Positions 21,406-38,054 of a stretch of DNA of 64,000 nt are shown here, one piece after another. Numbering within the stretch: the stretch's first letter is position 1; the number at the start of each line of letters is the position of its first letter. The stretch is taken from contig CAYVYJ010000002.1 in NCBI GenBank assembly GCA_964455085.1, positions 8,194-72,193 on the forward strand, written 5' to 3'. A model generated the notes under the pieces. It had not been told where the DNA came from and searched no databases. It was given only the letters and a program-made list of their open reading frames with translations. The translations under genes were made by a program, and so were the position numbers. This DNA comes from an uncultured Planctomycetia bacterium (GTDB lineage Bacteria > Omnitrophota > Gorgyraeia > Duberdicusellales > 4484-171).

Positions 21406-21563
21406 TTCCCGGTCCTTAAATGCGCCGCCAATTTTTTTTATTTCGCCCCTTGACAAGTAGGGAATATATGGTATGTTTTAATTACTACTAAAGCTATAGA
21501 CTTGGTAGGAATTAAAAACAGTGTGTTTATCGATATTAATGCAGACAAAAGGAGGGAAAAGAG

Positions 21564-22289
21564 GTGAGTTTATTGGATAACAAAGATGATCTAAAGGTAT
21601 TGGTGGAGAAGTTAAATTTTAAGGAAAAGGTTGACCGGTCTCTAGCTCTTATCAATGAAGCTTACGAGAAGTACGGTGACAGTTTAGTAGTAGCTAATAG
21701 CCTTGGCAAAGATTCGGTGGCAGTCTGGCATCTTGCAAAAAAGGTTAGTCCGAAAATAAAAGGGTTTATCGTTACAACCCGATTTAAGCCCAAAGAAACC
21801 ATAGAATTTATGAATCAAGAAGTGGCGCGCTACCAGGAACTAAAAATTTACAAAAGTGATGTGGATATACCACCAGAGCTCTACAAGACCGACCCTGATA
21901 GGTGTTGCGATTTGCTTAAGGTAGAGCCGGTAAAGCGGGCAGTTGAAGAAATGAAAGTAACTTGTTGGGTTACTGGCTTACGTTGTACTGAAGGCCGTAC
22001 CAGGACTGATTATAAAGAAGTTGAAGAAAGAGACGAAGGGCTAACGAAGCTGAACCCTATTCTTATCTGGAAAGAGCGGGAAGTTTGGCAATATCTTGCC
22101 CTATACGGAGTCAAGGTTAATCCTTTGTATGCAAAAGGGTACCGTTCCTTAGGTTGCGAGCCTTGTACAAAGATAACTAATGAAGATAATGAACGTTCAG
22201 GCCGTTGGATTGGTACAAGTAAATGTGGCGGAGAGTGTGGTATACACACCAGACCGCTTAAAACAAACTTAGACGGCGAAGGCATTTGA
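21564..22289 (+). CDS. cysH: Adenylyl-sulfate / phosphoadenylyl-sulfate reductase (CysH family, Fe-S type)
   Basis: GTG start with AAGGAGGG RBS; PP-loop SLGKDS; CC...CxxC cluster motif (RCCDLL, GCEPC); C-terminal ECGIH catalytic motif. Confidence 0.85.
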   Translation: MSLLDNKDDLKVLVEKLNFKEKVDRSLALINEAYEKYGDSLVVANSLGKDSVAVWHLAKKVSPKIKGFIVTTRFKPKETIEFMNQEVARYQELKIYKSDVDIPPELYKTDPDRCCDLLKVEPVKRAVEEMKVTCWVTGLRCTEGRTRTDYKEVEERDEGLTKLNPILIWKEREVWQYLALYGVKVNPLYAKGYRSLGCEPCTKITNEDNERSGRWIGTSKCGGECGIHTRPLKTNLDGEGI

Positions 22290-22387: not shown

Positions 22388-23332
22388 TTGGTGGTATTTT
22401 TCTCTCTAAATATGGGGGGCAGTAATTTCGGTGCTTCGTTTGCTGCAGCCCACGGAGGGAAGATAATTACCAAAAGAAGGGCCCAGCTTCTTTTCGTTAT
22501 CTTTATTTTATTGGGCGCAGTTTTAATGGGGCGTCCAGTAACAGAGACTATCGGAAAAAAAATAATTCCTCCGGAGCTTATTAACTTCGAAGTACTTCTT
22601 GTAATCTTTACTTCTACAGCGCTTAGTTTATTCATTGCTAACCAACTGCAGGTACCTCAATCGACTAGTCTTGTTACTATTGCTTCGATATTGGGAGTAG
22701 GGGCGTATTTAGGACGAGTTTACTTTGGTACATTAGCTTATTTATTGCCTTTCTGGGTATTATTACCAGTAGTAGGGTACTTATTGACATTTTTTCTGGG
22801 AAGGATAATATATCCTCCTCGAAGGAGTAATTTTTGGATTTACGAGAAATTAGTAAACCACAAAAACAGATTAAAAGCCTTTGTTATAATAGCTAGTTGT
22901 TATAATGCTTTTAGTATTGGTACTAATAATGTAGCCAATGCAGTTGGTCCTCTCCTTGGAGCCGGGATTGTGGATAAGACATTGGGGCTAGTTTTAATAG
23001 CTCCTATTTTTGGTTTAGGCAGTATAGTTTTTTGCGGCCCGCTGGAAACTACCGGAGGGAAAATAGTTCCTTTGGGGCTCTTATCAGCTACAATAATTTG
23101 CCTTGTAACCGGGACGCTTATGGTTACAGCTTCCTTTTTGGGAGTTCCTCAATCTTTTGTGATGATAAAGGTAGCGTCGGTCTTTGCTATTGGGAGCTTA
23201 AAGGATGGACACAGGCTTACATTTTTAAATCCGGTGACAAGAAAGACATACCTTACATGGCTTATAACTCCCATTGTTGCTTTTGGGCTTTCTTTTATTT
23301 TGAGTTGGCTAAAGGGTACATTTTTTGTTTAA
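22388..23332 (+). CDS. PiT-family anion permease (phosphate/sulfate; CysP-like given context); start codon uncertain
   Basis: Two PiT signature repeats (GGSNFGASFA; GTNNVANAVGPLLGAG), about 10 TM helices; adjacent to cysH; the in-frame hydrophobic extension upstream of the TTG at 22388 suggests an earlier non-canonical start. Confidence 0.7.
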   Translation: MVVFFSLNMGGSNFGASFAAAHGGKIITKRRAQLLFVIFILLGAVLMGRPVTETIGKKIIPPELINFEVLLVIFTSTALSLFIANQLQVPQSTSLVTIASILGVGAYLGRVYFGTLAYLLPFWVLLPVVGYLLTFFLGRIIYPPRRSNFWIYEKLVNHKNRLKAFVIIASCYNAFSIGTNNVANAVGPLLGAGIVDKTLGLVLIAPIFGLGSIVFCGPLETTGGKIVPLGLLSATIICLVTGTLMVTASFLGVPQSFVMIKVASVFAIGSLKDGHRLTFLNPVTRKTYLTWLITPIVAFGLSFILSWLKGTFFV

Positions 23333-23362
23333 AAAAATCTACTTATCGAGGTTAATAAATAT

Positions 23363-24394
23363 ATGGGTTTAATAGTTGTAGGTACAAGTTATAAATATAG
23401 CTCTCTTCAATTAAGAGAGAAGATGGCATTTTCTAAGAAAAAGGCAAAAGAAGCCCTCCTTCTTTTAAGACACAAGAAGCTATTAAGTGGGGCAGTCGTT
23501 CTTTCAACTTGCAATAGGACAGAAATCTATGCTAGTTCAAAAGATACTGAATTTGGCCTAGAGAAAATAGAGGAATTTATTTGTTCTTACCACGAACTAG
23601 AAAGAGGTGATGTCTCACCTTACCTGTATAAACATAAAGACTCACAGGTCTTGGAGCACCTCTTTTGTCTTGCTAGTGGTGTAGATTCTTTGATTTTGGG
23701 TGAAAGACAAATCGCCGGACAAGTAAAAGAAGCTTTACTCCAAAGCCAAGAAGCCAAATTTACCGATGAGCTTTTAGATGGAGTATTTGAGGCGGCTTTG
23801 ACCTTTGCCAAAAGAGTGCATGAGCAAACAACAATATCTGAAGGGAAGGTATCAGTAGGCAGCATAGCTATAGATTTTATAAAGGGAAAACTTAAAAGCC
23901 TTTATAATAAAAGTATTTTAATTATTGGAGTTGGTAAAGTCACCGAACTTCTACTTAAATATCTTAAAAAAGAAAAACCTAAAGTCGTATTTATATCTAA
24001 TCGGACCTTTGAGAAAGCAAAAGATTTTGCCTCATTAATAGGTGCAAGAGCAGTTAATTTTAACCAGTTTAGCCAATATCTAAAAGAGGCAGATGCTATT
24101 ATAACTGCTACCAAGAGCCCCAATTTTATTATTAAAAAGGAAGAAATCGCAAAGGCCAGAAGAGCTGAACTGTTGATTTTGGATCTAGCCTTGCCAAGAG
24201 ATGTTGATCCTGAGGTAAGGCAAATAAAGGGAGTGGATCTCTTCCATTTAGAGGAGTTGAATAAGGTTATAAGAGATAATTTCAAGAGAAAAAGTATTCA
24301 GGCAGAGATAGTAAAAGATCTTGCCCGTGCAGAGGTAGAAGAATTATGGAGCAAATTTATAAAGCTGGAACCAGAACCAGCCCTCTTGCCTTAA
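23363..24394 (+). CDS. hemA: Glutamyl-tRNA reductase
   Basis: Catalytic LSTCNRTEIY motif, NADPH-binding IIGVGKVTE. Confidence 0.85.
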   Translation: MGLIVVGTSYKYSSLQLREKMAFSKKKAKEALLLLRHKKLLSGAVVLSTCNRTEIYASSKDTEFGLEKIEEFICSYHELERGDVSPYLYKHKDSQVLEHLFCLASGVDSLILGERQIAGQVKEALLQSQEAKFTDELLDGVFEAALTFAKRVHEQTTISEGKVSVGSIAIDFIKGKLKSLYNKSILIIGVGKVTELLLKYLKKEKPKVVFISNRTFEKAKDFASLIGARAVNFNQFSQYLKEADAIITATKSPNFIIKKEEIAKARRAELLILDLALPRDVDPEVRQIKGVDLFHLEELNKVIRDNFKRKSIQAEIVKDLARAEVEELWSKFIKLEPEPALLP

Positions 24395-25029
24395 AACAGG
24401 TTGATGAGGTTTTAGCAAGTTTGCGAAAGATTTACCCGAGGCTTAAGGTAGAGGTAATAGGTATTGATACCTGTGGGGATAAAGATAAGTCTAAACCTAT
24501 ATCGACCATAGAAGGCAGTGATTTTTTTACAAGAGAGATAGATGAGGTTCTCCTGAAGGGAGAAATAGATTTTGCTGTTCATAGCGCTAAAGATTTGCCA
24601 GATAAGATTGCCAAGGGCCTTAAGGTTGCTGCAATTACTGCTTCAATCGACCCTAGAGATGTTTTGGTCTCCAAAGGCAATCTAAGGCTTAGTAAACTTC
24701 CCATAGGTGCAAAGATTGGAACGAGTAGCCTTCGTCGTAAGAGCCAATTAAAGGCCTACAGAGATGATTTTGAGATAATTGATATCCGCGGTAATATAGG
24801 GGACAGGCTAAAGATTTTAGGCAATAACGATTTGGATGCGATTCTTATAGCTGCCGCTGGTTTAATTAGGTTAGGATTAGAAGATGAAATTAGCCAAAGG
24901 CTTCCTGTTGATATAATGCAGCCACATCCTTATCAGGGTGCATTGGCAGTTGTTGTCCGCAGAGAGGATAGAACACTATTTAAGTTATTAAGCGTGTTAG
25001 ATAACAAAAAAGAGTTAAGTAAAGTATGA
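24346..25029 (+). CDS. hemC: Porphobilinogen deaminase (HemC) domains 1-2 only; C-terminal domain 3 with cofactor-binding Cys is absent
   Basis: GTRTSPLALKQ, IDFAVHSAKDLP motifs; ends at the point where E. coli HemC continues into domain 3 (...EGGCQVP...). Confidence 0.7.
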   Translation: MEQIYKAGTRTSPLALKQVDEVLASLRKIYPRLKVEVIGIDTCGDKDKSKPISTIEGSDFFTREIDEVLLKGEIDFAVHSAKDLPDKIAKGLKVAAITASIDPRDVLVSKGNLRLSKLPIGAKIGTSSLRRKSQLKAYRDDFEIIDIRGNIGDRLKILGNNDLDAILIAAAGLIRLGLEDEISQRLPVDIMQPHPYQGALAVVVRREDRTLFKLLSVLDNKKELSKV

Positions 25030-25053
25030 CAATTTTAGGGAGGTGGTTTAGAC

Positions 25054-25266
25054 ATGAATATTAAGGTTAATGGTAAGGAGAAAAGTTTTGATAAGGTTTC
25101 GCTCTCAGTATCTGAATTATTGAAGGTGAGTGAGGTACAGAGACCAGAAGTGGTTTCAGTGCAGCTCAACGGAGAGTTTGTTAAAAAAGAATATTTAGCG
25201 AGCACACATTTAAAAGAGAATGATCAGGTTGAGTTTTTGTATTTTATGGGTGGAGGCATAAGTTAA
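25054..25266 (+). CDS. ThiS/MoaD-family sulfur-carrier protein (HcyS/CysO-like) with a C-terminal extension after the GlyGly (..MGGGIS)
   Basis: 70 aa beta-grasp, MNIKVNGKE...VEFLYFMGGGIS; adjacent to metY, an E1 and a JAMM protease. Confidence 0.75.
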   Translation: MNIKVNGKEKSFDKVSLSVSELLKVSEVQRPEVVSVQLNGEFVKKEYLASTHLKENDQVEFLYFMGGGIS

Positions 25267-25291
25267 TGCCAAGATTAGAATAAGGAGTAGT

Positions 25292-26530
25292 ATGAAGAAG
25301 TTAAAGTTTATAACAAGAATCCTTCACAATAAGTTTTTAAAGAAAGATGTTCACGGCTCTCTACATATGCCTATTTACAATAATGTGGCTTTTGAATTTG
25401 ATACTGCGGAAGATATTGAGTTGGCATTTCAAGGTAAAAAGCCTGCCCATATGTATAGTAGGATAAGTAATCCTACAATTGAGAATTTTGAACAGAAGGT
25501 CAGGGTTGTTACTGATGCTTTAGGGGTTATTGCTCTGTCTTCGGGTATGGCTGCTATTTCAAATCTTATTTTGGCGGTCTGTGAGGCTGGAGATAACATC
25601 ATAACTACTAAACATTTATTTGGGAATACATATTCTTTGTTTGAGAAGACCCTTAAAAGCTGGGGGCTTGGGGTAAAATACACTGACTTAACCCAGCCCG
25701 GAAACCTTAAACACTTAATCGATAGTAAGACTAGAGCGATATTCTTTGAGACTATAACTAACCCTCAATTAGAGGTGGTAGATGTTAAGGCCTTATCTAA
25801 AATAGCAAAGGCTAAAGGTGTCTTGCTTATTGTTGACACAACTCTTACTCCTCCCTATACCTTTGACTCCAAAGCTTCTGGGGCTGATGTTGAAGTTTTA
25901 TCAAGCACTAAATACATATCTGGCGGTGCAACTTCAGTCGGTGGATTGATAATTGATAATGGTACTTATGATTGGGGTAAGAATAGTAAACTAAAAGCCG
26001 ATGTAAAGAAATATGGTAATTTTGCGCTTATCAATAAACTAAGGCGTGAGGTATATAGGAATATAGGTGCTTGCTTGTCTCCCCAGAATGCTTTTCTGCA
26101 AAGTGTCGGCTTGGAAACTTTACCATTACGGGTAGATGCCTCTTGTGCCAATACCTTAGAGATTGCCAAGTTTTTGCAGAGTTCACCTAAGGTAAAGTCG
26201 GTAAATTACCCCGGCCTTGAAGGCTCAAAATTTTATGAGATAGCTAAGAAGCAATTTGGCGTTAATCCCGGGAGTTTGCTTACCTTTGATTTAACTTCAA
26301 AACAGGAGTGTTTTGAGTTTATGAATAAATTAAAACTTATCAGGAGGTCGACTAATCTAAACGATAATAGGACTTTAATATTGCATCCGGCATCAACTAT
26401 ATTCTGTGAGTATGATGATAAGCTTAGAGCGGAAATGAATATAGGCGAAGCTATGATTCGTCTTTCTGTAGGTATTGAGGATCCAGTTGATCTGATTTCT
26501 GACATAAAAAGCGCATTGGAGGGGATATGA
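25292..26530 (+). CDS. metY: O-acetylhomoserine sulfhydrylase (MetY; Cys/Met-metabolism PLP enzyme)
   Basis: PLP-lysine region SSTKYISGGATSVGG, YSRISNPT motif, about 410 aa. Confidence 0.85.
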   Translation: MKKLKFITRILHNKFLKKDVHGSLHMPIYNNVAFEFDTAEDIELAFQGKKPAHMYSRISNPTIENFEQKVRVVTDALGVIALSSGMAAISNLILAVCEAGDNIITTKHLFGNTYSLFEKTLKSWGLGVKYTDLTQPGNLKHLIDSKTRAIFFETITNPQLEVVDVKALSKIAKAKGVLLIVDTTLTPPYTFDSKASGADVEVLSSTKYISGGATSVGGLIIDNGTYDWGKNSKLKADVKKYGNFALINKLRREVYRNIGACLSPQNAFLQSVGLETLPLRVDASCANTLEIAKFLQSSPKVKSVNYPGLEGSKFYEIAKKQFGVNPGSLLTFDLTSKQECFEFMNKLKLIRRSTNLNDNRTLILHPASTIFCEYDDKLRAEMNIGEAMIRLSVGIEDPVDLISDIKSALEGI

Positions 26531-27339
26531 TAAATTTCAGCGAAGAACAATTAAATCGGTATAGCCGCCATATTATTTTAGCTGATGTCGGAGTAGAGGG
26601 GCAACAAAAAATAATGGCTGGTAAAGTTCTAATCATCGGGGCCGGAGGCTTGGGTGCACCAGCCAGCCTTTATTTAGCTGCTGCTGGCGTAGGTACAATA
26701 GGGATAGTTGATGGAGATGTAGTTGAGACATCGAATTTGCAGCGGCAGGTAATCCACTTTACTGCCGATGTTGGTAAACCCAAGGTAGTTTCAGCTAAAG
26801 AGAAGATGGAAGCTATAAATCCAGAAGTAAAAGTAGTTACTCATCAGGAAAAAGTATTTGCGAACAATATCTTGGAGATAATAAAAGGCTATGATTTTGT
26901 CATTGACGGTACTGATAATTTTCCAGCTAAATTTCTTATTAATGATGCTTGTGTCTTAAGCAAGAAACCTTTTTCTCATGGCGGAATCCTAAGGTTTGAC
27001 GGTCAGGCCATGACCTATATCCCTGGTCAGGCTTGTTATCGCTGTGTATTCACTACTCCTCCTCCTTCAGATGCTGTGCCGAGTTGCTCTCAGGCCGGAG
27101 TTTTAGGAGCTGTTGCCGGAATGTTAGGGACAATACAAGCTGCCGAGTCCTTAAGATATTTGATTGGAAGAGGAGATCTTTTGGTGAACAGGTTGTTTAT
27201 TTTTGATGCCTTTAACATGAAATTTAGGAGTGTGAATATAAAGAAAAATCCTAAATGTCCAATATGCTCGGATAAACCAACAATCACCGAGCTAATTGAT
27301 GAGGTGCAGTCGGTTTGTGAATGGAAGAAAAGGAACTAA
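26527..27339 (+). CDS. MoeB/ThiF/HcyF-type E1-like adenylyltransferase for the sulfur-carrier protein
   Basis: Nucleotide-binding GAGGLG, conserved Cys, C-terminal CxxC...CxxC zinc motif (CYRC...CPIC); no rhodanese domain. Confidence 0.85.
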   Translation: MINFSEEQLNRYSRHIILADVGVEGQQKIMAGKVLIIGAGGLGAPASLYLAAAGVGTIGIVDGDVVETSNLQRQVIHFTADVGKPKVVSAKEKMEAINPEVKVVTHQEKVFANNILEIIKGYDFVIDGTDNFPAKFLINDACVLSKKPFSHGGILRFDGQAMTYIPGQACYRCVFTTPPPSDAVPSCSQAGVLGAVAGMLGTIQAAESLRYLIGRGDLLVNRLFIFDAFNMKFRSVNIKKNPKCPICSDKPTITELIDEVQSVCEWKKRN

Positions 27340-28634
27340 GGTTAAGGAGCTTAAGGTGGATGAAGATAAAAAGAGAAATTATTAAAAAAATCATTGTCCA
27401 AGCAAAAAGAGCTGCTCCGATAGAAGCCTGCGGTTATTTAGCATCTAAGTCTGGCATAGTGGCTAAACACTACACAATGACTAATATTGATAAGAGTCAA
27501 GAGCATTTCTCTTTTGCTCCCGAAGAGCAATTTAAGGCGGTAAAAGATGCCCGGGCAGAAGGTTTTGAAATTTGCGCAGTTTATCACAGCCATCCGGAAA
27601 CCGGCGCCAGACCTTCGCCGGAGGATATAAAGCTGGCATTTGATCCTAATTTAGTTTATGTAATTGTGTCTTTGCAAAAAGGAAATGAAGATGTTAAGGC
27701 ATTTACCATTAAACAGGGAAAAGCAAAAGAGGTAGAGATGGAAATAGAAGATAAAAATACTGGTGAGATTTCTAAGGCCGAGACAGACCTAGCTGAATTA
27801 AAAAGAGTAGGAATAATTCAACAGAAGCAAAAAAACTATTTTGTAATGAGGCTTAGGGCAGTAGGTGGAGATCTTACTACAACCCAGCTTAAGAAAATTG
27901 CCGAAGTTGCTGATAAATATGCTGACAGCCAAGTGCATTTATCTACTCGTCAGGGAGTAGAAATACATAATGTGCATCGCAAGAATTTGGCAGACGCACG
28001 CCAGGAGCTAAAAGAGGCAGGAGTAGAAATGGGTGCTTGCGGTCCTCGCATAAGAGTTATTGTAGCTTGTCCGGGATCAATAACCTGCCGCTGGGGCATT
28101 ATCGAAACAAAACAATTGGCCAAAGAACTTGATGCTAATTACTTCAGAAAAGATACGCCGCATAAGTTCAAGATTTCAGTCACTGGGTGTCCGCATAATT
28201 GTGCAAAAGCAACAGAGAATGATGTTGGTATTATGGGTGGTATACTTCCCAAGTGGGAAGAGGAAGAATGCATACATTGTGATTTGTGCGTTAATATTTG
28301 TCCGACTAAAGCCATCTATAAGCAAAATGGCCAGTATAAACTAGATAAGAAAAAATGTATTCTATGTAGTATTTGTACTGCTTCTTGTCCGACGAACAGT
28401 TGGGTGCCGGAGAAAAAAGGATATATTCTCTTTATCGGCGGAACCATGGGGAAAAAACCCAGACTTGCGACCCGGTATCCGGGACTCATAGAGAATAAGA
28501 CGAAACTTATGAAATTGGTTGAGCGAGCACTTCTTTTTTTTAGAAAACATGGCCGGAAAAAAGAAAGATTTGGGCATTTTATCGATAGATTTGGTGAAAA
28601 AAAGGCAGTAAAGGAGATTTCCGATGGAGTTTAA
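27321..28634 (+). CDS. Fusion protein: N-terminal JAMM/MPN+ metalloprotease (Mec+/HcyD-like) and C-terminal small siroheme sulfite/nitrite reductase with two ferredoxin-type 4Fe-4S motifs (start possibly ATG 27360)
   Basis: JAMM motif EACGYL...HSHPETGARPSPED (HxHx7SxxD); NiR/SiR ferredoxin-like half domain; siroheme-4Fe4S Cys pattern CPGSITC...CPHNC; CIHCDLCVNICP and CILCSICTASCP. Confidence 0.8.
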   Translation: MEEKELRLRSLRWMKIKREIIKKIIVQAKRAAPIEACGYLASKSGIVAKHYTMTNIDKSQEHFSFAPEEQFKAVKDARAEGFEICAVYHSHPETGARPSPEDIKLAFDPNLVYVIVSLQKGNEDVKAFTIKQGKAKEVEMEIEDKNTGEISKAETDLAELKRVGIIQQKQKNYFVMRLRAVGGDLTTTQLKKIAEVADKYADSQVHLSTRQGVEIHNVHRKNLADARQELKEAGVEMGACGPRIRVIVACPGSITCRWGIIETKQLAKELDANYFRKDTPHKFKISVTGCPHNCAKATENDVGIMGGILPKWEEEECIHCDLCVNICPTKAIYKQNGQYKLDKKKCILCSICTASCPTNSWVPEKKGYILFIGGTMGKKPRLATRYPGLIENKTKLMKLVERALLFFRKHGRKKERFGHFIDRFGEKKAVKEISDGV

Positions 28635-28860
28635 TGTTGTTAAGAGAATAGACTTGCACGGTATTGCTTGTCCAATGAATTTTGTTAAAACCAAAGTTGC
28701 CTTGGAAGCGATTAATTCCGGTGAAGTATTGGAAGTTATTCTCGATGAGGGAGAAGCAATGTTAAATGTTCCAAGGAGCCTTAAGGAAGAGGGCCATAAG
28801 ATTCTAAAAGTTATCCCTGCCGCAGACGGGATATACAAAGTTATCGTGGAAAAGAGATAA
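28624..28860 (+). CDS. TusA/SirA-like sulfurtransferase
   Basis: 78 aa; LHGIACPMNFVKTK resembles the TusA CPxP region (variant CPMN). Confidence 0.6.
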   Translation: MEFNVVKRIDLHGIACPMNFVKTKVALEAINSGEVLEVILDEGEAMLNVPRSLKEEGHKILKVIPAADGIYKVIVEKR

Positions 28861-28862
28861 AG

Positions 28863-30266
28863 ATGAAGAGAAGAAAAGTATATTTAGTCGGAGCAGGCCC
28901 GGGTAAGCCTGATCTCATAACTGTGAAGGGACAAAATATCCTAAGAGAAGCAGATGTTATAATTTATGACTATCTTGTTAATCCCGCTATTTTAGCTAAG
29001 GCTAACAAGAGAGCCGAAATAATAAACTGCCGGAATTTAGTTTCGGATAAAAGGTTCAGAAGCCCTCGTGCAAGGCAATTAGCCATAAATAATTTATTAG
29101 TAACTAAGGCTAAACAAGGCCGAAAGGTCTTGAGGCTCAAAGGTGGAGATCCAACTGTTTTTGGTCGTTGTTCAGATGAAACAAGAGCTTTGGCCAATCA
29201 AAAAATTGAGTTTGAGGTTGTTCCCGGGGTGAGTGCCGCAAGTGCCGCAGCTACTTTCGGCGGCATACCTTTAACTGACAATAGATTTGCTTCAAGTTGT
29301 CTTATTGTAAGTGGGCATAAGGGTTCAAAAAGAGGAGGTTCAAATCTTGATTGGGAAAATTTAGCTGGAGTTGATACTCTGGTTCTTTATATGGCCGTCG
29401 GTAATTTAACTAATATAATTAAGAAAATTATCTCAAGTGGTAAAAATGATAATACCCCAGTAGCTATAGTCAAAGACGCAAGTCTTATAACCCAGAAGGT
29501 CATAATCGGGACCTTAAAAGATATTGGAATCAAGGCTGAACAGAATAAATTAAAAGCTCCGGCGATAATCATTGTTGGTAAGGTAGTCGAAGTAGAAAAA
29601 AGGTGTAACTGGTTAAAAAAGAATAAGAGAATTCTTTTTACTGGTTTATCTAAGGAGAGATTCTTTCTCAAAGGTACTTATTTTCATCTGCCTTTAATTA
29701 AAATAGCTCCACTCAAGAGCTATAAGAGATTCGATAATTACCTAAAAAATATAGATAAATTTGATTGGATAGTTTTTGCTAGCCGTTTCGGTGTAGAGTA
29801 TTTTTTCAAAAGGTTAAATGGTTTAAAGTTAGACTCAAGAGTTATTGTTAGGGCTAAAGTTGCAGCTGTAGGTAATTCTACCAAAAACAAACTCCTTAAT
29901 TTTGGAATTTTAGCTGATCTAGTTCCCAAGATAGAATCGTCACAAGGGTTGTTAGAGGAATTCAGAAAACACGATCTTAAAAATAAAAAGATATTTTTGC
30001 CGCGTTCCGACTTATCTGATAAGGGTCTGGGCAAAGGGCTTGAAAACCTTGGTGCTAAGGTGAGCGTGGGTTTTGCCTATAGTAATTCCATGCCCAAGAA
30101 CTTACCAGATTTAGATTTAGAAAGTTTTGATGAAATTCATTTTACCAGTCCTTCAACCGTGAAGAATTTTAAGAAGCGATATAAAAGTGTACCCAAAAAT
30201 GTTAAGGTACGATGTATAGGGAATGTAACTTTAAAAGAGGCCAAAAGATGCCAGCTGTTAAGTTAA
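28863..30266 (+). CDS. Uroporphyrinogen-III C-methyltransferase (CobA/SUMT) fused to uroporphyrinogen-III synthase (HemD)
   Basis: N-terminus VYLVGAGPGKPDLITVKG...GGDPTVFGR (SUMT); C-terminal 230 aa HemD-like. Confidence 0.85.
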   Translation: MKRRKVYLVGAGPGKPDLITVKGQNILREADVIIYDYLVNPAILAKANKRAEIINCRNLVSDKRFRSPRARQLAINNLLVTKAKQGRKVLRLKGGDPTVFGRCSDETRALANQKIEFEVVPGVSAASAAATFGGIPLTDNRFASSCLIVSGHKGSKRGGSNLDWENLAGVDTLVLYMAVGNLTNIIKKIISSGKNDNTPVAIVKDASLITQKVIIGTLKDIGIKAEQNKLKAPAIIIVGKVVEVEKRCNWLKKNKRILFTGLSKERFFLKGTYFHLPLIKIAPLKSYKRFDNYLKNIDKFDWIVFASRFGVEYFFKRLNGLKLDSRVIVRAKVAAVGNSTKNKLLNFGILADLVPKIESSQGLLEEFRKHDLKNKKIFLPRSDLSDKGLGKGLENLGAKVSVGFAYSNSMPKNLPDLDLESFDEIHFTSPSTVKNFKKRYKSVPKNVKVRCIGNVTLKEAKRCQLLS

Positions 30267-31234
30267 GAAGATTACGTAAAACTAAGATTGTAAGAGATTG
30301 GATTAGCCAGACCAAATTCAATGCCAGGGATTTTATTATGCCTTATTTTATCTGCGAAGGTAAGAACAAAAAGGAACCCATTGAGTCAATGCCAGGGGTT
30401 TGGCGCTTATCACTCGATAGAGCCTTGGAAGATTTAAAGAAAACTAAAGGTATAAAAGCAATACTTTTGTTTGGCGTTCCAGCTAGGAGAGACGTGGTAG
30501 GTTCTTTTGCTTACAAAAAGAATGGCATTATTCAGAAGGCTGTGAGGGCGATAAAGCAGAGATATAAAGATTTGATTGTGATAACCGATGTTTGCCTTTG
30601 CGGTTATACATCGCACGGTCATTGTGGCTTATTGAGTGAGCCAAAAGCAAATAAGAGGCAAGAAGTAATTATAGATAATGACGATACTTTAAAAATCCTA
30701 ACTAAAATCGCTCTTTCTCATGCTGATGCCGGAGCAGATTTTGTTGCTCCTTCAGCAATGATGGATGGGCAAGTAAGAGCAATAAGAGAAGCGTTTGATA
30801 ACAAAGGATTTAAAGAGGTGGGGATTATGGCTTATTCTGCCAAATATGCCTCGCACTTCTATAGGCCTTTTAGAGAGGCTTTAGATTCTGTACCGCAATT
30901 TGGTGATAGAAAAAGCTATCAGATGGATTTTAGAAATTCAGATGAGGCTTTAAGAGAGATAAAGCAGGATATAGATGAAGGTGCAGATATAGTTATGGTA
31001 AAGCCAGCCTTAGCTTATTTAGATATTATTTATAGAGCAAAACAGAAATTTAATATTCCTATAGCTGCTTACAATGTAAGTGGTGAATATAGTATGATTA
31101 AAAAAGCAAGTGAAGGCAACAAAGCAGAAGAAAAAGAGCTATGTCAAGAAGTGCTTACTTCTATAAAAAGAGCTGGTGCAGATTTAATCATAACTTATTG
31201 GGCTAAAGATTTAATAAAATGGTTAAAACAATAA
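30248..31234 (+). CDS. hemB: Porphobilinogen synthase (delta-aminolevulinate dehydratase), zinc-type
   Basis: Cys-rich zinc site DVCLCGYTSHGHCG; ATG at 30248 (MPAVKL...). Confidence 0.9.
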   Translation: MPAVKLRRLRKTKIVRDWISQTKFNARDFIMPYFICEGKNKKEPIESMPGVWRLSLDRALEDLKKTKGIKAILLFGVPARRDVVGSFAYKKNGIIQKAVRAIKQRYKDLIVITDVCLCGYTSHGHCGLLSEPKANKRQEVIIDNDDTLKILTKIALSHADAGADFVAPSAMMDGQVRAIREAFDNKGFKEVGIMAYSAKYASHFYRPFREALDSVPQFGDRKSYQMDFRNSDEALREIKQDIDEGADIVMVKPALAYLDIIYRAKQKFNIPIAAYNVSGEYSMIKKASEGNKAEEKELCQEVLTSIKRAGADLIITYWAKDLIKWLKQ

Positions 31235-32538
31235 ACTTAGACGCTAATCGTAAATTATTTAATGAAGCAAAAAAGGTTATACCTGGGGGTGTAAACAGTC
31301 CTGTTCGTTCGTTTGTTTCTGTAGGTGGGCACCCAATTTTTAGTAAAAAAGGATGCGGCCCTTATCTTTGGGATGAGCAAGGCAAAAAATATATAGACTA
31401 TTGTCTTTGCTGGGGAGCGTTGATTTTAGGTCATGCTCATCCAGGGTTACTAAAAGTTTTAAAGAGTAGAATAGATAAAGGAATAGGTTTTGGCACAGCT
31501 ACTGAGCCGGAGATAGCTCTAGCCAAACTTATTACTCAAGCTTTTCCTTTGATTGAGCAGGTAAGATTGGTTAATTCCGGAACAGAAGCAGTAATGTCTG
31601 CAATAAGGCTGGCAAGAGCTTATACGAAAAAACGAAAAATTATAAAGTTTGAAGGTTCATACCATGGCCATGCTGATCATCTTTTAGTAAAAGCTGGTTC
31701 AGGTCTTGCTACTTTGGGTATATCAAATAGTTGTGGCGTCCCGCAAGATTTTGCCAAACATACAATTGTTATTCCTTTTAATAACTTAGAAGTTTTTAAA
31801 TCAACAGTTAAAAAATATCAAGGTGATTTAGCAGCAGTAATAGTTGAGCCGATAATGGCAAATTGTGGCTTAATACTTCCGAAAGAAGCATTTCTGAAAA
31901 CCTTAAGAAAACTTACTAGTGAAAATGATATTGTTTTGATCTTCGATGAAGTTGTTACTGGTTTTAGGCTGGGGTTTGGCGGAGCTCAAGAGTTTTTTGG
32001 AATCAAACCTGATCTTACATGTTTAGGTAAGATAATCGGGGCAGGTCTTCCTATAGGAGCTTTTGGTGGTCTCAGAAAAATAATGAAATTATTAGCACCC
32101 ATAGGTAGTGTGTATCAAGCCGGCACACTTTCCGGTAACCCCATCTCTGTTACAGCGGGAATTTTTACCTTAGAGACTTTAAAAAAACTAAATTCTTACA
32201 AGAGTCTTGAGAATAAGACAAAAAAAATATCTTTGGCATTAAAATCAGCAGCAGAGAAAAATAATATAGATTTAAAAGTAAATCGTATCGGTTCTATGTT
32301 TTCATTATTTTTTACAAAAAAGGAAGTCATAGACTACAAAACAGCAAAAACTCAAAACTTGGATTTATTTAGAAGTTTTTTTAAGACTATGTTGTTTCAA
32401 GGGGTATATCTTTCTCCTTCTGGTTTTGAGACAAATTTTTTATCTATTGCCCATAGTAATGATGATATCGAAAAGACAATTAGGATTTTTGAAAAGACAT
32501 TAAAGAAATTTGGGAGGAAAAAGAATGATAAATGTTAA
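31219..32538 (+). CDS. hemL: Glutamate-1-semialdehyde 2,1-aminomutase
   Basis: Class III aminotransferase fold, 439 aa, typical HemL N-terminus (FNEAKKVIPGGVNSPVR). Confidence 0.9.
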   Translation: MVKTINLDANRKLFNEAKKVIPGGVNSPVRSFVSVGGHPIFSKKGCGPYLWDEQGKKYIDYCLCWGALILGHAHPGLLKVLKSRIDKGIGFGTATEPEIALAKLITQAFPLIEQVRLVNSGTEAVMSAIRLARAYTKKRKIIKFEGSYHGHADHLLVKAGSGLATLGISNSCGVPQDFAKHTIVIPFNNLEVFKSTVKKYQGDLAAVIVEPIMANCGLILPKEAFLKTLRKLTSENDIVLIFDEVVTGFRLGFGGAQEFFGIKPDLTCLGKIIGAGLPIGAFGGLRKIMKLLAPIGSVYQAGTLSGNPISVTAGIFTLETLKKLNSYKSLENKTKKISLALKSAAEKNNIDLKVNRIGSMFSLFFTKKEVIDYKTAKTQNLDLFRSFFKTMLFQGVYLSPSGFETNFLSIAHSNDDIEKTIRIFEKTLKKFGRKKNDKC

Positions 32539-33463
32539 CCAGCAGGTTGCAAACAATGTATTAGAGCTTATAGGTAATACTCCTATGGTTAGACTTAATA
32601 GGATTTGTGAAGCCGGAATGAGTCAAATTCTTGCAAAGGTTGAGCTTTTTAACCCTGGTGGGAGTGTAAAGGATAGGATATGCCTTTCTATGGTTGAACA
32701 AGCTGAGAAAAATGGCCTATTAAAGCCCGGTTCAACTATCATTGAACCTACAAGCGGAAATACCGGCATTGGTTTGGCTATGGTTTGTGTTGTAAAGAAT
32801 TATCGCTGCGTACTTATTATGCCCGAGCTTATGAGTTTAGAAAGAATTTATATACTTAGATCTTATGGAGCAGAAGTTATACTTACTCCGGCGATTGAAG
32901 GTATGTTAGGAGCGATAAAAAAGGCAAAAGAGGTTGCAAAAAATACTCCTAATAGTTTTATACCCCATCAGTTTACTAATAAAGCCAACCCTCAAGTTCA
33001 TCGGGAAAGTACAGCCCAGGAGATTTTAGCTGTTGCCGGGAAAGATATAGATGCATTTGTTGCCGGAGTCGGCACAGGTGGGACTTTAACCGGAGTCGGT
33101 GAGGTTTTAAAGGAGCATAACCCGGAAGTTAAAATAATAGCTGTTGAGCCCAAAACAAATGCTGTACTATCGGGCGAGAAGCCCGGTCCGCATAAAATTC
33201 AGGGTATTGGCGCCGGATTTATACCCGAAATTCTTAACCTAGATGTAATTGACCGGATAATTAAAGTAGATGACAACGATGCTTTTAGAACTGCAAGAAG
33301 GCTGGCTAAAGAAGAGGGTTTATTTGTAGGGATATCATCTGGAGCTGCCACCTGGGCGGCTTTAGAAGTTGCTAGAGATTTAGGAAAAGGAAGAAAAGTT
33401 GTTGTCTTTTTGCCTGATACTGGTGAAAGATACTTTTCGATGGAACAATACTTTGAGGCTTAA
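32524..33463 (+). CDS. cysK: Cysteine synthase (O-acetylserine sulfhydrylase), paralog 1
   Basis: PLP-lysine region [23 protein letters not shown] motif; ATG at 32524. Confidence 0.9.
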
Positions 33464-33500
33464 AAATTAACAGATGTTGGTTGGATAAGATAATTAGAAA

Positions 33501-33947
33501 ATGGCTATGAAGATTTCGACAAAAACACGTTATGGTGTTAGGTTAATGCTGTTACTTGCTCTTAACTATGGTAAAGGGCCGCTACTTCTTAAGGAGATCT
33601 CCAGGAGAGAGGGGATTTCAGAAAAGTATTTAGGACAGATAATAATTCCTTTAAAGAGTGCCGGCCTTGTTACTTCCATCCGGGGAGCACGGGGAGGTTA
33701 TGAGTTGGGCAATCATCCCGCTGAGGTGACTTTAAAAAGCATCATTGAAGTTCTTGATGGTGAGATAAGTTTAGCTGAACGAATTAATGGATTCGCTTCT
33801 CCTAGCCGGGCAGCTTATTGTTCCAGTCATTTTGTGTGGGAAACATTGGAGAGAAACATATCTAAGACACTGGAGGCAATAACTCTTGAGAATTTAGTCT
33901 CAAAATACGGAGAGAATAAGAAGAACTCTATCATTTATAACATATAG
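33501..33947 (+). CDS. Rrf2-family transcriptional regulator (CymR/IscR-like)
   Basis: MKISTKTRYGVRLMLLLA..., wHTH and GYELGNHPAEVTLKSIIEVLDG; sits between cysK and the ThiI-like gene. Confidence 0.8.
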   Translation: MAMKISTKTRYGVRLMLLLALNYGKGPLLLKEISRREGISEKYLGQIIIPLKSAGLVTSIRGARGGYELGNHPAEVTLKSIIEVLDGEISLAERINGFASPSRAAYCSSHFVWETLERNISKTLEAITLENLVSKYGENKKNSIIYNI

Positions 33948-33959: not shown

Positions 33960-35000
33960 ATGAAGGCCTATCAGCAGAGTCAACTAAGTACAATATCTAC
34001 TACGAGAAGAAGAGCAGTGGTGTTATTCTCCGGTGGCTTAGATAGTACTCTGGCAGCCAAAGTAATTATTAACCAGGGGTTAGAGATAATTGCTTTGAAT
34101 TTTAGGAGTCCTTTTTGTCGGTGTGATCGATCAAGCAGGTGTGGATCTTCAATAAGAGATATGGCTAATCAATTGGGGATAGAGTTTAAATCAGTCTATT
34201 TGGGTCAGGAGTATCTTCGAATAGTTAAGACTCCGGATTATGGTTATGGCAGAAATTTAAATCCTTGCATTGATTGTAGAATATTTAAATTTAGAAAGGC
34301 AAAAGAATACATGAGAGAAATAGGTGCTTCTTTTGTTATTACTGGAGAAGTTCTAGGCCAGAGGCCAATGTCTCAGCATAGAAGGGCTTTGGAAGTAATA
34401 GAAAGAGAAGCCGGGCTCACAGGTCTTATTTTACGACCCTTGTCAGCTAAATTATTTTCACCCACAATTGCTGAGCAAAATAACTGGGTGAATAGAGAGA
34501 GTTTACTTAGTATTTCCGGGAGAACAAGAAAGCCCCAGATAAAATTGGCAACAGAATTGGGTTTAAAGAATTATCCTTGTCCGGCTGGGGGGTGTCTTCT
34601 AACAGATCCTGCATTTACGCGGCGCCTGAAGGATCTTATGGAACATGAAGATTTCAATATAGCTAACGTAGAATTATTAAAACTAGGAAGACATTTTAGG
34701 ATAAATTCTTCCTTTAGGCTGGTTGTAGGAAGAGATGAGAAAGAAAATGCTAAACTTAAAAACTTTCTTCAAAAAGATGATTTATATTTTGAACCTACAA
34801 AGCTTGCTGGACCTTCAGGGCTGCTTAGAGGTAAGTGGGATAATGAATTTAAAAATATAGCTGCTAAAATTATTGCATATTATACGTCAAGAGAACAAAA
34901 AGTAGAAATTTCTGTTTCGAATATCTCTGGTAACAATGAAGATAAAATATTTGCAGAAGCAATTCAAGAGTCGGTTGCGAGGAAATTAATGATTTTATAG
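33960..35000 (+). CDS. ThiI-type PP-loop ATP pyrophosphatase domain protein (no THUMP or rhodanese domain) with additional Cys clusters; putative Fe-S/sulfide-dependent thiolation enzyme
   Basis: PP-loop VVLFSGGLDS; ITGEVLGQRPMSQ and ILRPLSA match the ThiI core; Cys clusters CRCDRSSRC, CIDC, CPAGGC. Confidence 0.6.
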   Translation: MKAYQQSQLSTISTTRRRAVVLFSGGLDSTLAAKVIINQGLEIIALNFRSPFCRCDRSSRCGSSIRDMANQLGIEFKSVYLGQEYLRIVKTPDYGYGRNLNPCIDCRIFKFRKAKEYMREIGASFVITGEVLGQRPMSQHRRALEVIEREAGLTGLILRPLSAKLFSPTIAEQNNWVNRESLLSISGRTRKPQIKLATELGLKNYPCPAGGCLLTDPAFTRRLKDLMEHEDFNIANVELLKLGRHFRINSSFRLVVGRDEKENAKLKNFLQKDDLYFEPTKLAGPSGLLRGKWDNEFKNIAAKIIAYYTSREQKVEISVSNISGNNEDKIFAEAIQESVARKLMIL

Positions 35001-37781: not shown

Positions 37782-38054
37782 ATGGTAAAGGTAAAGATTC
37801 CGGGATTATTGCAACAAGATGCTAATGGCAGTAGTGATGTTGATTTAGAAGCAAAGACTATCCCTGAAGCTGTAAGAGGGCTGGTTAAACAATATCCCCA
37901 GCTGGCCCAGCGGCTTTGTGATTCAAAGGGTAGGATAAAGAAATACGTCCGTTTTTACATAAATCAAGAAGTCATTGAAACCGATAAGTATCAAAGCTTA
38001 TCTTTAAAAGAAGACGACCTTATCTCTATAATTATTCCTGTCGCCGGGGGATAA
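37782..38054 (+). CDS. MoaD/ThiS-family sulfur-carrier protein ending directly in GlyGly
   Basis: 90 aa, ...SIIIPVAGG-stop. Confidence 0.7.
   Translation: MVKVKIPGLLQQDANGSSDVDLEAKTIPEAVRGLVKQYPQLAQRLCDSKGRIKKYVRFYINQEVIETDKYQSLSLKEDDLISIIIPVAGG

Follow-up and report, generated by a model that had tools for sequence, protein, structure and literature searches.

The protein-thiocarboxylate pathway of Wolinella succinogenes, with its HcyS, HcyD, HcyF, MetY and Sir-type components, has been established experimentally (Krishnamoorthy & Begley 2011). Gene neighbourhoods of this type with SirA/TusA make up row 4e of Table 1 in Iyer, Burroughs & Aravind (2006), where their E1 enzymes are described as always rhodanese-less and always accompanied by SirA/TusA. 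The pathway type is thus already known, catalogued in 2006 and biochemically proven in Wolinella in 2011. A second point of comparison is the CysO/CysM/Mec+ system of Mycobacterium tuberculosis, which serves cysteine synthesis. Here we describe five consecutive genes at 25054-28860 of a 64-kb stretch of DNA (the window), which very probably turn sulfite into homocysteine by way of a protein thiocarboxylate, in a route that is orthologous to the Wolinella pathway and set inside one long transcription unit for sulfate assimilation, siroheme and methionine/cysteine synthesis. What is new is the union of the trimming protease with the sulfite reductase in a single protein.

Genes and domains of the cassette

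All five genes were found on the + strand where the original prediction had placed them, with domains scoring far above chance, and the profile searches it had suggested returned ThiS, Cys_Met_Meta_PP, ThiF, Prok-JAB and NIR_SIR. The first gene (25054..25266) encodes a ThiS-type, HcyS-like sulfur carrier (Pfam E 4e-10; TIGR01683 53.9, above the cutoff of 37.45), with the ThiS-like protein 2k5p/3cwi as its top PDB match. Its C-terminus reads ...FLYFMGGG-IS; the ThiS model stops at G68, and the leftover I69 and S70 form a tail that would need to be trimmed off. MetY (25292..26530; Cys_Met_Meta_PP E 3e-105), whose gene starts 25 nt after that of the carrier, is classed as a Wolinella-type O-acetylhomoserine sulfhydrylase, the kind that uses a thiocarboxylate. 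Its best match among solved structures was 3RI6, the W. succinogenes O-acetylhomoserine sulfhydrylase, at 440 bits versus 301 for the next and with 51% identity over 404 aa. It scores under all NCBIfam equivalog cutoffs and, as judged by sequence, is the orthologue of the Wolinella thiocarboxylate-dependent enzyme. The third product is a ThiF/MoeB-type E1 adenylyltransferase (HcyF-like) of 270 aa (26527..27339; ThiF E 4e-81), in which GAGGLG, the zinc motifs CYRC and CPIC, and a Cys within ...PSCSQAGVLG were recognised by eye; profile searches of its 270 aa found no rhodanese domain. The last gene (28624..28860; TusA E 5e-21) shares its first 11 nt with the end of the SiR gene and encodes a TusA/SirA-like protein whose one Cys sits in a C-P-x-N motif.

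Between the E1 and TusA lies a fusion of a JAMM/MPN+ protease with a siroheme sulfite reductase (27360..28634; 424 aa; Prok-JAB 2e-22, NIR_SIR_ferr 1e-20, NIR_SIR 8e-32), comprising a JAB domain (~27375-27704), a variable linker (~27705-27815) and an SiR domain with a 2x[4Fe-4S] insert (~27816-28634). The original prediction was right about the fusion gene. Its start is most likely the ATG at 27360 and not 27321, because all relatives in the alignment begin with MKI or MRI, database records hold the 424-aa form on 13 contigs and the 437-aa form on none, and a Shine-Dalgarno sequence lies upstream of this ATG. Across 21 aligned fusion proteins the JAMM motif E...HxHx7SxxD (E35, H89, H91, S99 and D102), both CxxCxxCxxxCP motifs and three of the siroheme-cluster cysteines (CX5C...CX3C; C250, C256 and C294) were invariant, and C290 was conserved in at least 90%. 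The sulfite-binding R355, R423, K460 and K462 of Fsr correspond to identical residues R177, R245, K282 and K284, and Fsr R388, an assimilatory hallmark, to R210. The predicted catalytic residues of the fused JAMM and SiR domains are thus all intact. In an AlphaFold2 model (pTM 0.51) the two domains fold separately on either side of a low-confidence linker (residues 144-155 with pLDDT below 50), and no fixed JAB-SiR interface was seen in this model.

Conservation across related loci and the surrounding unit

The order ThiS-MetY-ThiF-JAB-SiR-TusA was shared by some 45 of the 82 related loci, in Bacillota, Syntrophia and other Deltaproteobacteria, Omnitrophota, Planctomycetota, Spirochaetes and Elusimicrobia, and also in Margulisiibacteria, Victivallales, Nitrospinota and two Methanomicrobiales (methanogens), so spanning some ten bacterial phyla overall. 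JAB and SiR are mostly separate, adjoining genes in these loci. Carrier and MetY are adjacent in about 40, cysH-cysD often follows downstream of the conserved cassette, an Rrf2 gene accompanies it in many relatives, and in one locus (L080) MetX and MetW stand immediately upstream. Among the 38 carriers from loci in which JAB adjoins or is fused to SiR, 37 end in Y[FY][MLV]GGG (usually ...FLYFMGGG) followed by 1-18 variable residues, while all six Chlorobiaceae carriers, from cassettes without an adjacent JAB, terminate exactly at GGG. The carrier tail therefore correlates with the presence of JAB beside SiR.

The cassette lies in a unit of 22 co-directional (+) genes separated by gaps of at most 98 nt (21.5-39.7 kb), and the flanking genes claimed for it, namely cysH, the PiT permease, the hem genes, two CysK genes, MetX/MetW and a second GlyGly carrier, were all present. 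The 158-nt gap upstream of cysH holds, as its best sigma-70-like match, TTGACA-16-TATGTT with a TG extension (21450..21477), and the best intrinsic-terminator-like hairpin (39901..39922; 9 bp stem with 6 GC pairs, T-run) follows the last gene; both are consensus matches in a region whose site totals equal those of shuffled sequence, and as unit boundaries they are suggestive only. The first gene, cysH (21564..22289; PAPS_reduct E 3e-40; NF002537 169.5, above the cutoff of 154), encodes an Fe-S sulfonucleotide reductase with CC...CxxC and ECGIH motifs, which we take to mark the APS-reductase type, and APS kinase would therefore not be needed. The PiT/PHO4-family permease that follows (22388..23332; PHO4 E 2e-35) is probably a CysP-like sulfate permease, its single NCBIfam match being the CysP model at 216 bits, under the 400-bit cutoff.

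Siroheme-precursor genes flank the cassette on both sides. Upstream are hemA, for a glutamyl-tRNA reductase of 343 aa (23363..24394; TIGR01035 318.9 versus a cutoff of 209.55), and hemC, for a hydroxymethylbilane synthase of 227 aa (24346..25029; TIGR00212 249 versus 164). Both products are short forms: HemA covers positions 2-340 of 416 of its model and has no C-terminal dimerisation domain, and HemC covers positions 2-219 of 293, has no domain 3 and also matches the short-HemC model NF002202 (241 positions). Downstream, profile matches identified a cobA-hemD fusion (28863..30266) for uroporphyrinogen-III C-methyltransferase and synthase, which yields the siroheme precursor precorrin-2, and hemB, for porphobilinogen synthase (30212..31234), followed by hemL, for glutamate-1-semialdehyde 2,1-aminomutase (31219..32538; TIGR00713 592 versus 527). 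The expected absence of ATP sulfurylase, APS kinase and the siroheme-forming steps after precorrin-2 was borne out by a domain search, as no window ORF of at least 110 aa contained an ATP sulfurylase, APS kinase, SirC or SirB/CbiX domain. With ATP sulfurylase absent from the 64-kb window, the sulfate-assimilation steps upstream are thus putative here.

The two cysK paralogues (32510..33463, TIGR01139 444.7 versus 350.95, which may really begin a few codons past the TTG; and 35051..35977, TIGR01139 471.3) share 57% identity. Between them lie two genes unmentioned in the original prediction, one for an Rrf2-family, CymR-like regulator (33501..33947; above the Rrf2 superfamily cutoff, and at 122 bits under the CymR cutoff of 195), the other for a ThiI-like PP-loop ATPase fused to NFACT-R_2/DUF814 (33960..35000; profile matches), predicted to be an alternative 4-thiouridine synthase. 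Next come metX, for homoserine O-acetyltransferase (36054..37178; NF001209 520.8 versus 331), and metW (37182..37775; TIGR02081 228.9 versus 189.5). The second beta-grasp carrier (37782..38054), of 90 aa, is MoaD/SAMP-like and ends ...PVAGG with no tail. It had been counted with the methionine/cysteine genes; it is indeed part of the unit, but groups instead with a thiamine thiazole module made up of a Thi4 thiazole synthase (38128..38922; TIGR00292 251.9 versus 148.3), with a Cys in ...GHDAMVCQK, and its recurrent partner DUF6775, a putative metal-binding protein (38931..39749).

The proposed route and its alternatives

Sulfate would enter through the CysP-like PiT permease, an ATP sulfurylase whose gene lies elsewhere would activate it, and the Fe-S-type CysH would then convert APS to sulfite. 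The C-terminal half of the fusion is predicted to be a group-IIId Dsr-LP/Fsr-C-type siroheme-[4Fe-4S] reductase, taking sulfite to sulfide with six electrons that would enter through its two ferredoxin-type clusters; for group III Dsr-LP proteins no biochemical characterisation has been reported, and methanogens with such proteins reportedly make no use of sulfite. The N-terminal JAMM domain would remove Ile-Ser from the carrier and expose ...MGGG-COOH, ThiF would adenylate this carboxylate, and the acyl-adenylate would react with sulfide, either free or delivered by the single-Cys TusA-like protein standing in for a rhodanese domain, to give the carrier thiocarboxylate. MetY would then join the thiocarboxylate to MetX-made O-acetylhomoserine, an S-to-N acyl shift would yield a carrier-homocysteine amide, and the same JAMM domain would hydrolyse it, releasing homocysteine and recycling the carrier. 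The likeness to the Wolinella pathway is read from gene set, motifs and MetY sequence, and every in silico test agreed with it: the carrier tail, JAMM motif and rhodanese-less E1, with further support from the MetY-3RI6 match, the SiR residues, MetX and the shared gene order. The Wolinella half of the original analogy thus stood, whereas its CysO-CysM half proved weaker.

It is rather unlikely that the carrier supplies cysteine synthesis in the manner of CysO/CysM/Mec+, instead of or besides homocysteine, with one CysK paralogue accepting the thiocarboxylate. Two CysK genes do lie within the unit, CysK stands directly upstream of ThiS in four related loci (L002, L007, L008 and L079), Chlorobiaceae show the order MetY-CysK-ThiS-ThiF, and in L081, from an actinobacterium, ThiS is fused to CysK beside SiR-TusA-cysH-JAB. 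However, here the carrier is followed closely by MetY, a pairing widely kept, and this MetY is the apparent specific orthologue of the Wolinella enzyme; both PALP enzymes exceed the CysK equivalog cutoff and fall under that of CysM; and the E1 does not have the rhodanese domain typical of MoeZ.

We also consider it improbable that sulfur stays protein-bound, with the TusA-like protein shuttling persulfide or thiosulfonate among CysH, SiR and the carrier adenylate on the E1, so that the thiocarboxylate would form from TusA-SSH and not free sulfide, TusA taking the role of a rhodanese domain or DsrC. In 71 of the 82 loci, some of them without ThiS or JAB, the gene right after SiR is TusA, mostly with an overlap, and the TusA Cys is invariant; the constant pairing of rhodanese-less E1s with SirA/TusA mentioned above fits as well. 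The protein also matches YeeD/TsuB, and TusA homologues are reported to bind thiosulfonate or persulfide sulfur. Against this, the SiR active site looks assimilatory (R210; CX5C), in Fsr a narrow channel leads to the buried siroheme and HS- leaves the enzyme without a DsrC-like partner, and in five Chlorobiaceae loci SiR is followed directly by cysH and TusA is absent. Moreover, the Wolinella reconstitution reportedly worked using sulfide.

That MetY and CysK use ordinary free sulfide, leaving ThiS, ThiF and JAB to thiamine synthesis, tRNA thiolation or ubiquitin-like modification, is very unlikely. Thi4, the ThiI-like enzyme and the second carrier do need activated sulfur and have no E1 of their own, and ThiF and JAB gave sub-threshold matches to archaeal SAMP E1 and desampylase models; nevertheless, the tight and widely conserved ThiS-MetY-ThiF-JAB order, the co-occurrence of carrier tails with JAB and the MetY orthology all argue otherwise, no ThiG, ThiH or MoaE was found in the window, and in some relatives neither Thi4 nor the PP-loop gene accompanies the cassette. 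The idea of an anti-phage system for ubiquitin-like conjugation (CBASS Cap2/Cap3-like or Bil-like) that lies by chance beside sulfur genes is effectively refuted by the PADLOC results and the conserved metabolic synteny, since the matches of the ThiF Rossmann domain to E1-E2 models (up to 67.7 bits) and of JAB (17 bits) are limited to the generic E1 fold, no E2 domain, cyclase or effector was found, the carrier, MetY and TusA had no PADLOC matches, and the surroundings are wholly sulfur and tetrapyrrole metabolism.

For the homocysteine route, the fusion bears on how its steps may be organised. SiR-JAB fusions were found in at least 8 loci (about 8 of the 82) and some 29 protein clusters, an SiR-ThiF fusion occurs in one (P0069/L003), and an SiR-ThiS fusion has been described in actinobacteria (Iyer et al. 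2006); together they point to a physical association of the reductase with the carrier machinery. The JAMM-reductase fusion should keep carrier processing near the site of sulfide production, and the ThiF-SiR and ThiS-SiR fusions of other lineages would likewise keep activation close to it.

Organisation of the cassette and its transcription unit

The ORF table placed five co-directional genes at 25054-28860 (+), the positions given in the original prediction, and their domains were assigned using Pfam and NCBIfam. The first gene encodes a ThiS carrier (25054-25266), which was matched by both libraries and scored 53.9 bits with TIGR01683 against a cutoff of 37.45. It is followed by genes for a Cys/Met-metabolism PLP enzyme, MetY (25292-26530; E 3e-105), a 270-aa ThiF/MoeB E1 without a rhodanese domain (26527-27339; E 4e-81), a protein combining Prok-JAB, NIR_SIR_ferr and NIR_SIR domains (E 2e-22, 1e-20 and 8e-32) with two ferredoxin-type cluster motifs (27321-28634), and a TusA-like protein (28624-28860; E 5e-21; Pfam TusA 74.7 against a cutoff of 28.6). 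The HMM check proposed in advance was thereby run, with the ThiS, Cys_Met_Meta_PP, ThiF, JAB and NIR_SIR domains all matched in the cassette.

The cassette lies within a unit of 22 genes on one strand (21564-39749), running from cysH to a DUF6775 gene with gaps of no more than 98 nt. The flanking genes previously listed, namely cysH, a PiT permease, hemA, hemC, cobA-hemD, hemB, hemL, two cysK, metX and metW, were all recovered, and the unit also includes genes for an Rrf2 regulator resembling CymR and for a ThiI+DUF814 PP-loop protein, both absent from that list. The best promoter-like match (21450-21477) and the best terminator-like hairpin (39901-39922) bracket the cysH-DUF6775 stretch, both being consensus matches of kinds whose overall site counts equalled those in shuffled sequence. 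An Rfam scan of the whole window returned no riboswitch (SAM, T-box, TPP) and no other RNA family.

Also as predicted, Pfam analysis of all ORFs of at least 110 aa in the 64 kb detected no ATP sulfurylase, APS kinase, precorrin-2 dehydrogenase or sirohydrochlorin ferrochelatase domain. CysH (21564-22289) contains the CC...CxxC cysteines and ECGIH, which we take to be the mark of Fe-S, APS-using CysH reductases, and the missing APS kinase is no gap because CysH is of this APS-reducing type. The sole NCBIfam match of the PiT permease was the CysP sulfate permease model, while MetX scored above its NCBIfam equivalog cutoff and O-acetylhomoserine should therefore be available. The C-terminal dimerisation domain is missing from HemA (343 aa), as is domain 3, the site of the cofactor-binding Cys in the E. 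coli enzyme, from HemC (227 aa); both proteins are similarly short (345 and 240 aa) in L001, one of the related loci fetched from other genomes. The short HemC was dropped as a novelty, as NCBIfam holds a 241-position short-HemC model (NF002202).

The PP-loop gene (33960-35000) encodes a fusion of a ThiI-like PP-loop ATPase and NFACT-R_2/DUF814 with several Cys motifs, and it also adjoins the cassette in L001 and two other related loci, L010 and L030. This fits the 'ThiI+DUF814' class, a predicted alternative 4-thiouridine synthase whose association with TusA is conserved (PMC4075521). Upstream, a radical SAM gene (20146-21405) was dropped as a unit member, having no homologue (E < 1e-5) in any fetched related locus. 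It is preceded by a 375-aa ORF (19006-20133, +) which, along with a 513-aa ORF (14529-16070, -) and a 251-aa ORF (53913-54668, +), had no Pfam match at E <= 1e-5. Downstream of the unit, 40041-57288 encodes, in order, a YHS/cupredoxin protein, a CsoR-type repressor, a CusCBA-like efflux system, the biotin genes birA-bioB-bioF-(bioH-like)-bioC-bioD-bioA and then Fur-FeoB-DtxR/FeoA.

The JAB-SiR protein, MetY and the two carriers

The original prediction of a JAMM-sulfite reductase fusion was borne out, although the gene most likely starts at ATG 27360 and not at 27321. The resulting 424-aa JAB-SiR product (27360-28634) is recorded on 13 independent contigs, and an equivalent MKI/MRI start is present in all 20 of the 20 aligned homologues. 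AAGGAG and AAGGTGG are found 5' of ATG 27360, and the first 11 residues of the longer, 437-aa form had a pLDDT of 34 in AlphaFold2. The start at 27321 was rejected since an exact-sequence look-up gave no database record of the 437-aa form, while the 424-aa form is recorded.

Across 21 JAB-SiR fusions, the JAMM motif E...HxHx7SxxD is intact (E35, H89, H91, S99 and D102 invariant), as are C250, C256 and C294 of the siroheme-coupled cluster, C290 being present in at least 90%, and both CxxCxxCxxxCP motifs are invariant. In the PDB, the JAB half has matches to small JAMM proteins that stand alone, 2kks (E 2e-25) and JAMM1, while the SiR half has its closest solved relative in Fsr's C-terminal half (7NP8, E 2e-40), the alignment reaching Fsr residues of about 311-612 only. 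In the Fsr structure paper, the ligands of sulfite are R355, R423, K460 and K462, and R388 and the CX5C motif are given as hallmarks of assimilatory enzymes; these correspond to identical positions in JAB-SiR, namely R177, R245, K282, K284, R210 and C250. With its CX5C...CX3C coupled cluster, two extra [4Fe-4S] motifs and four sulfite-binding Arg/Lys residues, all in common with Fsr and the group IIId Dsr-LP proteins, the SiR half is classified by sequence as group IIId Dsr-LP/Fsr-C type as defined by Susanti & Mukhopadhyay (PMC3448663). In contrast to Fsr, JAB-SiR has no N-terminal F420H2-oxidase (FrhB-like) domain and carries Prok-JAB in its place, and its predicted role is assimilatory whereas that of Fsr is detoxifying. 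An AlphaFold2 model of the fusion built on the 21-sequence alignment (mean pLDDT 73.9, pTM 0.51) had a disordered linker and no fixed JAB-SiR interface. Overall, the cassette proteins look functional as judged from their conserved motifs.

The closest PDB match of MetY was 3RI6 (440 bits, 51% identity over 404 residues), the next O-acetylhomoserine sulfhydrylase among all PDB sequences scoring 301 bits. As 3RI6 comes from W. succinogenes (Tran, Krishnamoorthy, Begley & Ealick), MetY is assigned to the Wolinella, thiocarboxylate-using OAHS, type. The carrier encoded next to it was matched by ThiS models above their cutoffs and ends in ...MGGG-IS, with the ThiS model finishing at G68.

A second carrier ending in GG, likewise predicted for the wider region, was found at 37782-38054, and we assign it provisionally, by contiguity and published clustering, to Thi4-DUF6775 thiazole synthesis. 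This 90-aa MoaD/SAMP-like protein ends in AGG-G with no tail, and shares only 29% identity with the first carrier, over 31 residues. Its gene is contiguous with Thi4 and DUF6775 (37782-39749), and the only ThiF gene lies 10 kb upstream, within the unit (26527-27339). Clustering of Thi4, ThiS, ThiF and DUF6775, including an Omnitrophica example, has been published together with pilot evidence of ThiS/ThiF dependence (Oliveira-Filho et al. 2026, PMC13325395), and the window likewise has Thi4 beside DUF6775 and a ThiS-family carrier, with ThiF in the unit. Because the trio matches this published clustering, the second carrier most likely serves thiazole synthesis, borrowing the single ThiF of the unit. 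No related cassette locus has the trio; Thi4 is again paired with DUF6775 in a Chloroflexi MAG (L087), and the complete Omnitrophota genome CP070807.1 (L086) encodes ferredoxin-ThiS(90 aa)-ThiF-Thi4-DUF6775. In the latter genome Fur-FeoB-DtxR directly follows DUF6775, its counterpart in the window being further downstream. By-eye alignment suggests that GHDAMVCQK of Thi4 likely places a Cys at the position equivalent to the active-site Cys.

Distribution and variants of the cassette

A database search with the fusion protein as query returned about 29 clusters of JAB+SiR proteins, a single ThiF+SiR fusion and hundreds of 285-aa reductases without a fusion partner. Eighty-two loci were fetched, and their ORFs were labelled by phmmer with the window proteins as queries. 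The order ThiS-MetY-ThiF-JAB-SiR-TusA was found in about 45 of them, often followed by cysH-cysD, and ThiS-MetY adjacency in about 40. The hosts comprise Bacillota, Syntrophia and other Deltaproteobacteria, Omnitrophota, Planctomycetota, Spirochaetes, Elusimicrobia, Margulisiibacteria, Victivallales and Nitrospinota, as well as the methanogens Methanosphaerula and Methanoculleus. The full cassette is present in two cultured methanogens, Methanosphaerula subterraneus (L035) and Methanoculleus palmolei (L038), in both around 10001-11290. Synteny over the whole operon, Rrf2-cysH-PiT-hemA-hemC through cysK, was seen with L001 and L004, and the closest named relatives are Omnitrophota MAGs, with 83% identity for DUF6775 and 74% for the SiR domain. 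The window is therefore probably part of an Omnitrophota genome, in line also with the Fur-FeoB-DtxR genes shared with CP070807.1.

JAB and SiR are separate, abutting or overlapping genes in most loci, and are fused in the window and seven fetched loci. In a neighbour-joining tree of SiR domains, the window sits beside two Omnitrophota MAGs whose genes are unfused, within a clade of mostly fused proteins, and two Planctomycetota MAGs together with the related locus L002 make up another fused clade; therefore fusion or fission happened more than once. The ThiF-SiR protein, P0069 (566 aa; L003, 3062-4762), is preceded by Rrf2-cysH-PiT and followed by TusA, cobA-hemD and CysK, with no ThiS, MetY or JAB nearby within the 14.7 kb of L003. 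L003 may have arisen by deletion from a JAB-SiR cassette, or may reflect an E1-SiR partnership using a carrier encoded elsewhere. In six Chlorobiaceae loci (L052, L061 and L064-L067) MetY-CysK-ThiS-ThiF on one strand faces SiR-(TusA)-cysH-cysD with no adjacent JAB; five Chlorobiaceae loci have no TusA after SiR. An Actinomycetota MAG (L081) encodes SiR-TusA-cysH-JAB, then an apparent ThiS~CysK fusion and a MoaD~ThiF fusion, and is a CysO/CysM-like variant around the reductase-TusA pair.

The carrier tail tracks JAB. Where JAB adjoins or is fused to SiR, 37 of 38 carriers extend by 1-18 variable residues beyond a conserved Gly-rich motif, usually ...FLYFMGGG, and in the six Chlorobiaceae cassettes with a carrier and no adjacent JAB the carrier ends exactly in ...GGG. 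This is expected if a protease must unmask the carrier, as a 2011 abstract on Wolinella reportedly describes for HcyD acting on HcyS-Ala, in which the tail is a single Ala.

TusA is encoded directly 3' of SiR in 71 of the 82 loci, including loci without ThiS or JAB, and in most its start overlaps the SiR stop by 8-17 nt. All 71 of these SiR-linked proteins have an invariant Cys in a C-P-x-N motif, and most have a single Cys; the canonical motif, as in E. coli TusA, is C-P-x-P. According to Iyer et al. (2006), the E1s in this class of neighbourhood are invariably rhodanese-less and invariably accompanied by SirA, for which the authors proposed a rhodanese-like role.

Relation to known pathways and proposed route

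The cassette closely resembles the W. succinogenes protein-thiocarboxylate methionine pathway (HcyS-Ala/HcyD/HcyF/MetY/Sir), reportedly described by Krishnamoorthy and Begley and by Tran and colleagues in 2011. The window holds, as had been predicted, a gene content of this type, and in it were found a masked carrier, an intact JAMM protease, a rhodanese-less E1, a 3RI6-type MetY and an intact siroheme SiR. Shared features are the ThiS-like carrier with residue(s) beyond Gly-Gly, the protease, the E1, MetY (51% identity), the clustering of sulfite reductase with sulfate-assimilation genes, and SirA/TusA, for which W. succinogenes has an entry in Iyer et al. (2006). In contrast, the window encodes protease and reductase as one polypeptide, has an Ile-Ser carrier tail where that of Wolinella is said to be a single Ala, and adds siroheme-precursor genes, two cysK, metXW, a regulator and the thiazole module, while its cluster lacks ATP sulfurylase, 3RI6 serving in this comparison as proxy for the Wolinella locus. 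The start of the unit also recalls the Bacillus subtilis cysH-cysP-sat-cysC-sirABC operon, in which a PiT-family sulfate permease and siroheme genes likewise come after cysH within a single unit; the window differs in lacking sat, cysC, SirB and SirC, and in adding hemA, hemC, hemB, hemL and the carrier-protein module.

The neighbourhood matches exactly that described by Iyer, Burroughs & Aravind (2006; Table 1, row 4e), which comprises ThiS/MoaD, JAB, a rhodanese-less E1, SirA, PAPS reductase, sulfite reductase and O-acetylhomoserine sulfhydrylase, with examples including W. succinogenes, Geobacter, Desulfitobacterium, Clostridium and Chlorobium. However, of the SiR fusions that survey reports only ThiS-SiR (actinobacteria), not JAB-SiR or ThiF-SiR, it does not cover Omnitrophota, Planctomycetota, Nitrospinota or methanogens, and it is silent on carrier tails. 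A partial literature search found no published description of the JAB-SiR or ThiF-SiR fusion, the carrier tail/JAB correlation, the C-P-x-N signature, or the cassette in Omnitrophota, Planctomycetota, Nitrospinota or Methanomicrobiales. The fusion, tail correlation, C-P-x-N signature and new hosts are refinements of a known pathway, not a new kind of system.

The Wolinella scheme is the best-supported reading of the cassette, and the gene order, motifs, 3RI6-type MetY and tail/JAB correlation all support it; from it we infer all the chemical steps. Sulfate would be taken up by the CysP-like permease, activated by an ATP sulfurylase encoded outside the window and converted to sulfite via CysH, and the SiR domain would then reduce sulfite to sulfide. 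The JAMM domain would trim Ile-Ser from the carrier, which would be adenylated by ThiF and converted to the thiocarboxylate with sulfide, possibly via TusA. MetY would join the carrier thiocarboxylate to O-acetylhomoserine, and the JAMM domain would free homocysteine.

In the M. tuberculosis CysO/MoeZ/CysM/Mec+ system a carrier thiocarboxylate is the sulfide donor to a PLP enzyme and a JAMM hydrolase frees the amino acid. The likeness to this route that had been proposed holds for the carrier and the JAMM protease, and in both a PLP enzyme would be fed by a carrier thiocarboxylate with JAMM release, but not for the remaining components. The M. tuberculosis acceptor enzyme is the fold-type-II CysM with O-phosphoserine and its E1 has a rhodanese domain, and that system has no sulfite reductase fusion, whereas in the window the carrier pairs with the fold-type-I MetY, the E1 lacks rhodanese, and both PALP proteins, 57% identical to each other, pass the CysK cutoff and not that of CysM. 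An additional, CysO-like use of the carrier for cysteine is possible, though not favoured.

Fusions of SiR to JAB (window), to ThiF (P0069 in L003) and to ThiS (actinobacteria; Iyer et al. 2006) argue, as Rosetta-stone evidence, for reductase, protease, E1 and carrier acting as a physical complex. We regard as rather improbable the more extensive proposal that JAB-SiR, ThiF, the carrier, MetY and the C-P-x-N TusA form one assembly taking CysH-derived sulfite to homocysteine and never releasing free sulfite or sulfide, with TusA as a thiosulfonate/persulfide shuttle like DsrC or rhodanese; if true, it would give a physiological role to the group III Dsr-LP reductases and the C-P-x-N TusA subfamily. 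The assimilatory type of the SiR active site, and the fact that siroheme is buried in the Fsr-type fold, speak against a DsrC-like role for TusA. It is also unlikely that MetY uses purely free sulfide, with the ThiS/ThiF/JAB trio serving something else, since the conserved synteny speaks against this. An anti-phage Ubl system (CBASS Cap2/Cap3, Bil) was rejected, as PADLOC gave partial E1-fold matches only, with no E2 or effector.

The cassette represents, with a domain-fusion variant, an already known pathway type, the predicted observation being confirmed and its interpretation supported. The thiocarboxylate route to homocysteine is proven in one organism only, W. succinogenes, where it is reported to have been shown biochemically in 2011. 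KEGG and MetaCyc still lacked it in 2017, and because of this absence Hcy-type loci are routinely mis-annotated; homologues of the reductase are named 'dissimilatory sulfite reductase alpha/beta' or 'anaerobic sulfite reductase subunit C' in databases. JAB-SiR is a convenient single protein for probing the sulfur source of the thiocarboxylate and the role of TusA. The locus also gives functional context to the group III Dsr-LP proteins, which the Fsr structure paper describes as biochemically uncharacterised and whose role in methanogens is regarded as unknown in the literature. Finally, a survey of Omnitrophota took COG2221 'DsrA' matches in 23 genomes as possibly dissimilatory (PMC10066038), and the present locus argues that at least some of the Omnitrophota COG2221 matches are assimilatory.
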